From a virus (Duplodnaviria; Heunggongvirae; Uroviricota; Caudoviricetes), in IMG/VR virus record IMGVR_UViG_2698536552_000012: DNA of 6,339 nucleotides; one strand, written 5' to 3'. The stretch's first letter is position 1, and every line of letters begins with the position of its first letter. The translations under genes were made by a program, and so were the position numbers. Shown in pieces: positions 1 to 2,742 of the stretch. The notes beneath the pieces are model-generated. The model did not search any database. It saw nothing but the letters and a program-made list of their open reading frames with translations, and was not told the origin of the DNA.

Positions 1-69
1 CTTTAGAGTAACGTTGGGTTTTTCTGCTCATTATTAGCTCCTTCTGATGCCATTCTATTTCAGGAAGGA

Positions 70-384
70 GTGTCCGTTAAACTCAGGCTACCTCAATTTG
101 CGCTGGGAAGTGGTGCGCAAGTTGCGTCTAGTGGCGATATTTATGGTTCAGTGTGGGAAAACAACTGGTTAAGCACATGGCTGCATAATCATGTCGTTCG
201 GGATATTCGTCTTGGCAGCATTGAATATAAAAACGTATGGCGCGACTACGGCTTTGGCGATGCGTCAGGTTATGTTTTAACAGCCGCAATTAACAGCAAT
301 GCGGATGATATTGTCGACACTGTTGCCAGAAGGCCAATTCAGAAATTGATTGGGGGAATATGGTACAACGTGGGGAGTGTTTAA
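70..384 (+). CDS. Phage tail fibre C-terminal (receptor-binding tip) protein, 104 aa; possibly a 5-prime-truncated remnant of a longer fibre gene
   Basis: ORF with GTG start at 70 preceded by aggaagga (62-69). C-terminus ...[18 protein letters not shown] parallels the C-terminus of the opposite-strand fibre (...[18 protein letters not shown]), and both share a VRDxRLG motif. All three + frames have stops within the first 40 bp, so coding cannot continue upstream in this window. Stop TAA 382-384 abuts the ATG of the next gene. Confidence 0.5.
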
Positions 385-385
385 G

Positions 386-913
386 ATGATGCACCTGAAA
401 AATATTAAGGCCGGGAATCCGAAAACACCGGAACAATACCAGCTAACTAAAAAAGCGGGCGTGGTATGGCTCTTTTGCGAAGATGGCAAAAACTGGTATG
501 AGGAACAAAAGAATTTTCAGCCAGACACCATAAAAATTGCTTACGATGAGAACAACATCATCGTTGCTGTCAGTAAAGACGTTTCAACTATTAATCCTGA
601 AGGGCTAAGCATAGTTGAAGTTCCTGATATTACGGCAAATCGTCACGCAGACAATAACGGAAAATGGATGTTTCTGGATGGTAAAGTAGTAAAGAGGGAA
701 TATACAGAACAGGAACTGCAACAACAGGCCGAATCACAAAAGGCCGCATTGCTTTCCGAAGCTGAATCAGTCATCCAGCCGCTGGAACGAGCTGTCAGGC
801 TGAATATGGCAACAGACGAGGAACGCACACGACTGGAAGCATGGGAACGCTACAGTGTTCTGGTCAGCCGTGTGGATACGGCAAATCCTGAATGGCCACA
901 AAAGCCTGAATAA
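386..913 (+). CDS. Tail fibre assembly protein (Tfa chaperone), 175 aa
   Basis: ATG at 386 immediately after the fibre stop, with GGGGAG 8 nt upstream. N-terminus [22 protein letters not shown]...DGKNW...INPEGLS...PDITANR matches the conserved N-terminal domain of enterobacterial prophage Tfa proteins (recognised from memory). It is paralogous to the minus-strand ORF 942-1475. Confidence 0.8.
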
Positions 914-918
914 AAATT

Positions 919-938
919 AAGGCCCGATAGCGGGCCTT
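919..938. terminator. Hairpin between the two convergent tfa genes, candidate bidirectional intrinsic terminator
   Basis: aaggcccg-atag-cgggcctt: perfect 8-bp stem with 4-nt loop, lying in the 28-bp gap between the tfa stop (911-913) and the tfa-prime stop (942-944). A/T-rich flank taaaaatt lies on the left; the T-run is weak on the + side. Confidence 0.45.
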
Positions 939-941
939 CTC

Positions 942-1475
942 TCATTCTGGTTGTTCGGGAAACGTTACTGGCAGGCTGGAGGTGTCTGTGGATTCAACCT
1001 TCTGCGCATAGAGCATCCACTCGGTTAATTTTTGTTTATTCTCATCGGAAATGATGCCCAGCTGTAGCTGAGAGTCCCACAGCTGGGTTTTATCCCTGAC
1101 GAGCTGCAGCAGGCTCTGCTTTTCATTTTCCGCTTGTTGCCTTTGCTCTTCCTCGGTATAAGTTCGCTTTATCACCGCACCATCTTTGAACATCCAGTTG
1201 CCCGAAATATCAGCCCGGCGATTTGCTGTAATATCAGGCAACTCAACGACACTTAAACCTTCTGGATTAATTGCTGATACATCCTTGTCTATAGCAATAA
1301 TTATTCCCTCAACTGTGTAAGCCAGTTTTATTGTATCCTCCTGAAAGTTTTTTAATTCCTCATGCCAATTTTTTCCATCTTCGGACCATAACCAGATAAC
1401 ATCAAAATTCTTTGTTAGCTGGTATTGTTCAACGGTTTTTGGATTACCTGCGACAATGTTTTTTAAATGCTGCAT
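942..1475 (-). CDS. Tail fibre assembly protein, second inverse-oriented copy (Tfa-prime), 177 aa
   Basis: [22 protein letters not shown]...DGKNW...[18 protein letters not shown]: the first ~120 aa are roughly 65% identical to the + strand Tfa, and the C-terminal ~55 aa are unrelated. Its ATG (1473-1475) lies 2 bp after the stop of the upstream minus-strand fibre reading frame. Confidence 0.8.
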
Positions 1476-1477
1476 GA

Positions 1478-2391
1478 TTATACCTGCGATACGTTATACC
1501 ATGTTCCGTTAATTAACTTTTGTATTGGTCTGAATACTGCCGGATCATCACCATCGACTTCACCGATAATACCAAGCCCCGTGATTACATGGCCTGATTT
1601 TTCATACATCACGCCTTTCTTCATGGTCTAAACAACTCGTGTGCCAAGTCTGACATCTCTCACATAGCGGGAATCAAAGTTACCGTAATCCGAGGGATTA
1701 ACACGTCCCGTAATATTTATGGTTTTATTACTTTGAATGCTTCCGGAGACAAAGCGCATAACATGGACGTTATTAGCATAAACATCCAGATTACCATCGC
1801 CTTTTTGTTTAAAGCCCGTGTCATTATCACCCAATACAATCGAATTACCGCCAAGAGCACTGGATGTTCCGATACCCAGTGCACCATTCAGTTGACCACC
1901 AGATNNNNNNNNNNNNNNNNNNNNNNNNNNNNNNNNNNNNNNNNNNNNNNNNNNNNNNNNNNNNNNNNNNNNNNNNNNNNNNNNNNNNNNNNNNNNNNNN
2001 NNNNNNNNNNNNNNNNNNNNNNNNNNNNNNNNNNNNNNNNNNNNNNNNNNNNNNNNNNNNNNNNNNNNNNNNNNNNNNNNNNNNNNNNNNNNNNNNNNNN
2101 NNNNNNNNNNNNNNNNNNNNNNNNNNNNNNNNNNNNNNNNNNNNNNNNNNNNNNNGTTTTCCCTAAGGCAAACGCACCAACATGACTTGCTTTTAATGTG
2201 ATATCGGAGGAACCATCAAAAGCCACATTGCTTATTTTCCTGGCAGTTTTTAATTTTGCAGCTGTAGAAGCATTGCCGGATAGTTCACCAGAAAGGCCAC
2301 CGCTGAATGTTTGTCGATTAGTCCAGGTATTCGCTGTACTGAGTAACGGTATTTTCTCCCCGCTTGTGCCGAGTTCTCGTAAACCGAGGTT
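1478..2391 (-). pseudogene. Side tail fibre variable C-terminal region (Sv-prime-like), disrupted by an in-frame TAG and interrupted by an N-run
   Basis: Minus-strand translation from the crossover site: NLGLRELGTSGEKIPLLSTANTWTNRQTFSGGLSGELSGNASTAAKLKTARKISNVAFDGSSDITLKASHVGAFALGK...[N-run]...[146 protein letters not shown]. The amber codon (plus coordinates 1628-1630) is followed in frame by a conserved fibre C-terminus. The segments either side of the N-run are in different frames if the 251-nt run length is exact. Confidence 0.6.
1905..2155. other. N-run (251 nt), undetermined or masked sequence inside the tail-fibre variable region
   Basis: Literal n characters in the sequence. Confidence 1.
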
Positions 2392-2399
2392 TTAGATAA
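2374..2399. other. Site-specific recombination crossover site of the Gin/Hin/Cin/Pin invertase family (gix/hix-like)
   Basis: ttctcgtaaaccgaggttttagataa: 26 bp made of two imperfect inverted 12-bp half-sites around a central GA. It differs at about 3 positions from the Mu gix sequence as I recall it (TTCCTGTAAACCGAGGTTTTGGATAA). It sits exactly between the 5-prime end of the minus-strand fibre variable region and the invertase gene, the position of gixR in Mu. Confidence 0.6.
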
Positions 2400-2453
2400 T
2401 GGCGGTTTCTGGCCTGCATGGCATGATTTGTGCTTTTGGACGGGAGATTCAGC

Positions 2454-2742
2454 GTGCTGATTGGCTATGTAAGGGTATCAACAAATGACCAGAATACAGA
2501 CCTGCAACGAAACGCTCTTGTTTGTGCAGGATATGAACAAATATTTGAAGATAAATTAAGCGGAACAAGGACAGGCCGACCTGGATTAAAACGTGCTTTA
2601 AAGCGCCTTCAAAAAGGTGACGCACTGGTTGTCTGAAAACTGGACTGACTGGGGCACTGTATGCGGCATCTTGTCGTGCTGGTGGTGGAAGCCTAGAAAA
2701 AGTATCGGGTGTTGCTGAACCGTGTTGATACATCAACTGCAC
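2454..2742 (+). pseudogene. pin: Serine recombinase, DNA invertase of the Pin/Gin/Hin family: N-terminal part with three in-frame stop codons, running into an N-run
   Basis: GTG at 2454 with GGGAG 9 nt upstream. Translation VLIGYVRVSTNDQNTDLQRNALVCAGYEQIFEDKLSGTRTGRPGLKRALKRLQKGDALVV is near-identical to invertase N-termini, with the catalytic Ser in the RVSTNDQ motif. Stops follow at 2634-2636 (TGA where Trp is expected in VVWKLDRLG), 2646-2648 (TGA for Arg) and 2694-2696 (TAG), with residual similarity continuing (KLD-LG...M.HL..LV.E...VDTS). A full invertase needs about 550 bp; only 289 bp are present before the N-run. Confidence 0.7.

Follow-up and report, generated by a model that had tools for sequence, protein, structure and literature searches.

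In the window analysed here, a 6,339-nt stretch of viral DNA (IMG/VR record IMGVR_UViG_2698536552_000012), positions 1–2742 are in all likelihood part of an invertible tail-fibre segment of the Gin/PinB type ("Din" family), namely its right-hand three quarters, and the prophage that carries it is lambdoid and decayed. Invertases of the Din family are small serine recombinases of about 190 residues with a catalytic Ser9 and a C-terminal helix-turn-helix, and the family is recognised by 26-bp sites in which two imperfect 12-bp inverted half-sites surround a central dinucleotide. The window is interrupted by runs of N at 1905–2155, 2743–2968, 3677–3917, 4479–4639 and 5196–5446. Relatives, given here as L-numbered loci, were collected through exact look-ups of the proteins encoded in the window, and their orientations were read from their genomic contexts. 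The prophage sits at ompW beside the trp operon in a Shigella sonnei-like genome, and the switch is the orthologue of that of the EC958 prophage Phi4. We call the lineage S. sonnei-like because the complete genomes L004, L006–L010, L023–L030 and L032 show 100% identity to the window wherever it is unmasked, and because the close relative L031 (CP022672) is S. sonnei 866 (PMC6128377).

Mirror-image cassettes are present at 96–913 on the plus strand and at 942–2386 on the minus strand. The plus-strand cassette starts directly behind the right end of an IS600 insertion sequence (IS; IS3 family; 1–95, minus strand), which interrupts the plus-strand fibre gene. What is left of this gene is the tip of the expressed-side variable fibre part Sv, namely its C-terminal 95 codons and the stop (96–384), identified by collinearity: from position 96 onward, the window is 99.9% collinear with the 3' end of an intact 918-residue fibre of L005, which begins with a phage_tail_N domain (Pfam). 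The following gene, tfa (386–913, plus strand), is an intact open reading frame (ORF) of 175 residues with a Caudo_TAP match (E 7.9e-37) and 144/175 identical positions (82%) to Mu U, and no promoter-like site was found upstream of it within the window. Its counterpart tfa' (942–1475, minus strand) is also intact, with 177 residues, a Caudo_TAP match (E 4.8e-34) and 150/177 identical positions (85%) to Mu U'. The two genes contain a mirror-image repeat with arms at 386–544 and 1317–1475 that are 71% complementary, and they converge on a 28-bp intergenic gap with a G+C-rich, terminator-like hairpin (919–938; 8-bp stem with 6 G-C pairs) that, by its sequence, resembles a bidirectional terminator. 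The minus-strand cassette is completed by Sv' (1478–2386), the silent alternative C-terminal part of the fibre. Sv' has no start codon of its own. In L004, an unmasked twin with 100% identity over the rest of the sequence, its frame is continuous, and this twin gave the gp37_C match of Sv' (E 9.6e-8). An intact 934-residue fibre of L016 matches Sv' at 99% identity over its C-terminal 308 residues. As a first-pass annotation of this DNA had claimed, Sv' carries an amber codon: the TAG at 1628–1630 (minus strand) is in frame, 49 codons before the natural end, at a position where L016 has Gln. Neither the 104-residue ORF at the tip nor the 48-residue ORF after the amber had a match in Pfam, and both were assigned by alignment to intact fibres.

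The boundary between Sv' and the invertase gene is marked by a 26-bp crossover site at 2374–2399 (plus strand), which reads TTCTCGTAAACC GA GGTTTTAGATAA and thus has the architecture of a Din-family site. It is the one such site in the window, and as 200 shuffles gave 0 matches, the match is beyond chance. Among the published sites of the family (Table 3, PMC3241671), bixR agrees with it at 24/26 positions and Mu gix, which has the same central GA, at 23/26. In relatives, the partner site on the side of the constant fibre part Sc is TTCCTGTAAACC GA GGTATTCGATAA and is identical to bixL (26/26). It lies 601 bp upstream of window position 96 in intact relatives, beyond the IS, and it is present in L005, L031, L012 and EC958 and absent from relatives of the L004 type described below. 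The claim that a single site is recognisable therefore holds for the window itself, but it is partly an effect of where the window begins, as intact relatives keep the partner upstream.

The gene next to the site (2454–2683, plus strand, GTG start) is a serine invertase pseudogene with a Resolvase match (E 3.1e-19). Its residues 1–79 align with the sequences of the Mu Gin structures 4M6F and 3UJ3 (E 4.8e-39), and over its first 180 nt the gene agrees with Mu gin (175/180). Ser9 is kept. With the intact gin-like gene of E. coli E24377A and Mu Gin as references, TGA codons replace Trp61 (2634–2636) and Arg65 (2646–2648), and the invertase homology stops at about codon 77–79 of 193, so that the E-helix and the DNA-binding domain are gone. 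The gene adjoining the segment thus belongs to the expected family but, being a pseudogene, does not encode a working serine recombinase. The stump is fused to a 3' tfa fragment (2683–2742, plus strand) that ends in the N mask; it aligns to a tfa fragment of L004, and in L002 and EC958 the Prokaryotic Genome Annotation Pipeline (PGAP) likewise calls two partial genes here, the second of them for a tail-fibre assembly protein. Of the three stops and the truncation that had been noted before, the two TGA codons and the truncation are real lesions of the invertase, but the third stop lies in the fused fragment: the TAG at 2694–2696 had to be dismissed as an invertase stop, as it corresponds to a Trp codon of the tfa fragment starting at about 2683. 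The loss of the cis invertase predates the divergence of E. coli ST131, enteroinvasive E. coli (EIEC) O121 and the Shigella lineage. According to Kahmann et al. in 1985, the Mu enhancer reportedly lies in the 5' part of gin; the corresponding Fis-bound enhancer of recombination is probably intact in the stump. Pfam matches, reading frames and the site search agree with one another, and the coordinates and the gene order of the first-pass annotation (fibre tip, tfa, tfa', minus-strand fibre, site, invertase) are therefore correct. Its assignment to the Mu G/P1 C/e14 P type is borne out by DNA homology to Mu G-gin and P1/P7 C-cin, by the Gin alignment and by the likeness to bixR, and in the comparison with Mu that it had proposed, the two chaperones matched U and U' and the invertase remnant matched Gin.

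The loss of the invertase did not stop inversions in related genomes. Between L011 and L005, a 2950-bp segment is inverted, with collinear flanks that are 99.9–100% identical, and among ST131-like genomes, L012 differs from L017 and L021 by the inversion of a 3119-bp segment. Both orientations thus occur among orthologues (L005/L011 and L012/L017/L021), and the flipped segment that an alignment of related strains had been expected to reveal was found twice among near-identical genomes. The breakpoint of these inversions is exactly the crossover site. Comparison within each inverted pair shows the inner half-sites, TTCCT and TTCTC, exchanged and the outer halves unmoved, which places the exchange inside the shared core GTAAACCGAGGT. 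The fibre frames remain continuous through the exchange: Sc is fused in frame to Sv in L005 (918 residues), and in L011 the inversion fuses it to the amber-bearing Sv' (875 residues up to the amber). Both TGA stops are found in L005, L011, L012, L017 and L021 alike, and the tfa fusion is shared by all five. The most parsimonious order is that the loss of the invertase preceded the flips, which would then have been catalysed in trans. The same had been concluded for EC958, where PacBio data gave both orientations of the Phi4 tail-fibre region as alternative contigs, with sites at 1484784–1484809 and 1487865–1487890, and where, the invertase being severely truncated, the inversion was attributed to a different enzyme that must act in trans (Forde et al., 2014; PMC4134206). 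We checked the published Phi4 coordinates and confirmed the sites there, the 3' site being identical (26/26) to window positions 2374–2399. Possible trans invertases are not rare, as 1731 of 5426 complete E. coli genomes encode near full-length homologues of the invertase, and for the e14 P segment it was shown experimentally that PinQ of another prophage inverts it (PMC12529663). The dead cis invertase, we infer, does not lock the switch, which would instead be flipped in trans. The first-pass annotation had considered the switch apparently locked, partly because its invertase is dead; given that relatives with identical lesions occur in both orientations, this claim is at best right, but on the wrong grounds. 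A further arrangement was observed in L016 (OZ040035.1, locus 2962–5952, E. coli), which has the inner half-site TTCTC at both ends and expresses the window's Sv' allele without the amber, as the 934-residue fibre; judged from its sequence, this locus would show that cassette shuffling goes beyond simple inversion.

What appears to have fixed the segment in the lineage of the window is the insertion sequence. Window positions 1–95 are 100% identical to two IS copies in L004, and the full 1264-bp element, with its transposase on the minus strand, is 99.8% identical to an annotated "IS3-like element IS600". The insertion lies at position 95/96, at about codon 823 of the 918-residue fibre, with a 3-bp target duplication, ATT (96–98 in the window), at the junction seen in L031. 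As positions 1–95 are the end of IS600, what had been called the "fibre tip" on the plus strand is a stump of 95 codons, and the 104-residue ORF (70–384) is a chimera that starts inside the IS. Two upstream contexts were encountered. L031 has IS600 as a simple insertion and keeps, 601 bp upstream, Sc with the bixL-type site. In the L004-type junction, lysis genes are followed by IS600 without the ATT duplication, and genomes of this type have lost all tail genes, Sc and the partner site. The L004 type accounts for 9 of the 10 IS600-bearing contexts shown, and every context without a mismatch to the window in the invertase region is of this type; this deletion is much more likely in the window's genome than the arrangement of L031. 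If the deletion type applies, the remnant is fixed for want of a partner site; the window's own genome thus presumably lacks that site and would hence be fixed. The real lock in this lineage is the IS600 insertion together with the IS-mediated loss of Sc and the partner site, a loss found in most relatives. Neither orientation gives a complete fibre in the IS600-cut form, and with a pseudogene invertase, an amber in Sv' and a severed plus-strand fibre, the locus is rightly called decayed. In L004, two IS600 copies (1720–2983 and 6447–7710) flank the phage lysis region, as seen for S. sonnei-type relatives, and in some genomes (L007, L027, L028) the stretch between or beside the IS600 copies is inverted or rearranged, which suggests that IS600 has mediated rearrangements upstream of the stump.

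Several points weigh against a fixed remnant of a formerly trans-flipped switch. The window starts inside IS600, and upstream contexts of the L031 type and of the L004 type fit it equally; 251 bases of Sv' are masked, by an N run that is 13 bases shorter than the sequence in identical relatives, and a further lesion is possible there; and trans inversion rests on parsimony and the literature and is not demonstrated in these genomes. The first of these points would leave room for a switch that is not locked in the source genome, with an L031-type simple insertion of IS600 and a Din invertase of another prophage that would still flip, in trans, a segment lengthened by the IS to about 4.2 kb. L031 does have this arrangement, with both sites intact and the 3-bp target duplication, the window is identical to it from the IS end onward except for one L031 mismatch in the invertase region, and the orthologues flip without a cis invertase. 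We nevertheless consider an unlocked switch unlikely, as nine of the ten IS600-bearing contexts lack Sc and the partner site, among them every context that matches the window perfectly in the invertase region, where L031 has its mismatch. Moreover, either orientation yields a broken fibre, and flipping would have no selectable output.

It may also be asked whether the host makes use of what remains, with a fibre fragment or the two intact chaperones acting against superinfecting phages, as is reported for StfE2 of e14 once PinQ has inverted its segment. Both tfa ORFs have stayed intact in a pseudogene-rich genome, and the PinQ-driven inversion of e14 P blocks T2 adsorption (PMC12529663). However, both fibre ends are broken, one by IS600 and the other by the amber, the window offers no promoter-like site in front of tfa, and recent decay explains intact short ORFs, so that such a use appears very improbable. 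We give a similarly small chance to the broader idea that an orphan half-switch is still active in Shigella sonnei, as a partner for the Din invertases or sites of other prophages or in an anti-phage host role like that of StfE2, for which one good bix-type site, two intact chaperone genes and the probably intact enhancer can be cited; if true, it would entail large chromosomal inversions or deletions, or the retention of chaperones or fibre fragments for an anti-phage role. The jumble of tfa fragments in 2683–5100 might finally suggest that the mirror-image layout is a chance juxtaposition of fibre fragments brought about by prophage recombination. The probability of this is close to nil, as the gene sizes and the spacing are those of Mu G and a specific 26-bp site lies at the exact boundary; the match to the Mu genes and the precise, site-bounded inversions in relatives rule it out.

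The fixed remnant of a Din-type switch is the reading that we prefer. Its layout, its homologies, its lesions and the flips in relatives were seen directly, and the following account can be given. In the intact form, a serine invertase pairs the two inverted 26-bp sites and exchanges strands at the central GA, flipping a segment of about 2.9–3.1 kb so that Sc is fused alternately to Sv with tfa or to Sv' with tfa'. In the locus studied here, the invertase was lost through the two TGA stops and the cut at about codon 79 caused by the fusion to a tfa fragment. Flipping continued in relatives, presumably by a Din invertase of another prophage acting in trans, which the retained 5' part of the invertase gene would assist. 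Sv' has acquired the Gln-to-amber mutation, Sv has been split by IS600, and most relatives have lost Sc, the partner site and the tail genes to a deletion mediated by IS600.

Comparison with known systems places the locus close to Mu. The Mu G segment has the same gene order, sizes and spacing, with U of 528 bp, a 28-bp gap and U' of 534 bp, and G and gin show 83.5% DNA identity over 54% of the query; D108 is homologous as well, and so are the C segment and cin of P7/P1-like phages, the range for Mu G and P7/P1 being 79–83.5%. Unlike in Mu, the segment lies in a lambdoid prophage next to a lambda-stf-like Sc with phage_tail_N rather than Mu S, the distal Sv and Sv' are not Mu-like, and the invertase is dead. 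The crossover sites of the B-pinB system of Shigella boydii are of the type seen here: bixL equals the Sc-side site of the relatives (26/26) and bixR equals their state-B invertase-side site (26/26), a comparison of sites and not of segments; the two mismatches of bixR concern the site of the window. Tominaga et al. are said to have described the S. boydii B segment in 1991 as G-like and located beside a constant fibre part that is not Mu-like, with pinB reportedly an active invertase, unlike the stump of the window. The prophages e14, Rac and Qin of E. coli K-12 (PinE, pinR, pinQ) are also defective lambdoid prophages with a Din-type fibre switch, but the pix sites differ in their half-sites and are centred on AA, where the window has GA, pinE DNA is only about 70–72% identical to the gin-like gene, and e14 retains an active invertase; in this group, invertases act across prophages, as in the case of PinQ and e14 P (PMC12529663). 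The closest system is Phi4 of E. coli O25b:H4-ST131 EC958 (PMC4134206), a lambdoid prophage at the same ompW/trp locus with the same truncated invertase, the same two TGA codons and the same tfa fusion. It is 99.3% identical over window positions 2156–2742, its invertase-side site is identical (26/26), and its flanks match those of the window (methyltransferase, Rha, Ash, ompW remnant, trpA). EC958 differs in that it keeps Sc and the 5' site and has its 3106-bp segment in both orientations in PacBio reads, whereas the window lineage has Sv/tfa/tfa' cassettes that are only about 75% identical over 392–1904, the amber in Sv' and IS600 in Sv, with Sc and the 5' site missing in most relatives.

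Downstream of the switch, the locus continues with a methyltransferase gene, tfa fragments, Rha, Ash, the ompW 3' remnant and the trp operon, and from the crossover site rightwards the locus occurs at 99% identity in many E. coli, including ST131 and EIEC O121. The gene for a class I S-adenosylmethionine-dependent methyltransferase (about 3770–4438, minus strand) is ringed by tfa debris: repeated 3' tfa fragments and a DUF4376/tfa-like pseudogene at 2683–2742, 4640–4735 and about 4689–5100, which look like several rounds of tail-fibre cassette exchange. At 2969–3676 on the minus strand, between the N runs 2743–2968 and 3677–3917, lies a piece of the type III secretion system effector gene ipaHe, comprising its 5' 187 codons and 147 bp upstream and 99.7% identical to EIEC copies. 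It is absent at this place in all complete relatives that are 100% identical to the unmasked window, which have 240 bp there. EIEC O121 carries ipaHe in a different lambdoid prophage, beside a 96%-identical methyltransferase locus, and the piece may stem either from an exchange, specific to the strain, of paralogous prophage remnants with one another or from an artefact of assembly or scaffolding. The window ends with an IS1 end (6230–6339) adjoining the ompW 3' remnant (about 6110–6229) on the attachment side of the prophage, and some relatives have further IS1 copies within the locus. The lengths of the N runs differ from those in 100%-identical genomes for 1905–2155 (251 vs 264) and 4479–4639 (161 vs 240), and for 3677–3917 (241 vs 316) if the stretch is L022-like, while 5196–5446 agrees (251 vs 251). 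The unequal lengths rule out that the N runs are length-faithful masks, and an apparent frameshift across 1905–2155 is therefore no evidence of a lesion; reading frames should not be carried across the masks. In L004, the counterpart of this masked part, 9243–10019, lacks one codon of Sv' (TTT RKPS to TT RKPS) that the E. coli homologues of this fibre allele have.

Fibre switches of this kind have been textbook knowledge since Mu G-gin, and the Shigella version B-pinB was reportedly published by Tominaga et al. in 1991 (J Bacteriol 173:4079; GenBank D00660). The system type and this very locus are already known from EC958 since 2014, including the truncated invertase and the trans inversion, and because both the kind and the locus are known, the finding carries little weight as a discovery. 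Its meaning lies rather in how such loci are read. A pseudogenised invertase beside an invertible segment is not proof of fixation, and where both sites survive, annotation and assembly should reckon with both orientations. The final inactivation in Shigella was brought about by the IS600 insertion and the IS-mediated deletion, which fits the IS-driven decay of the genome.

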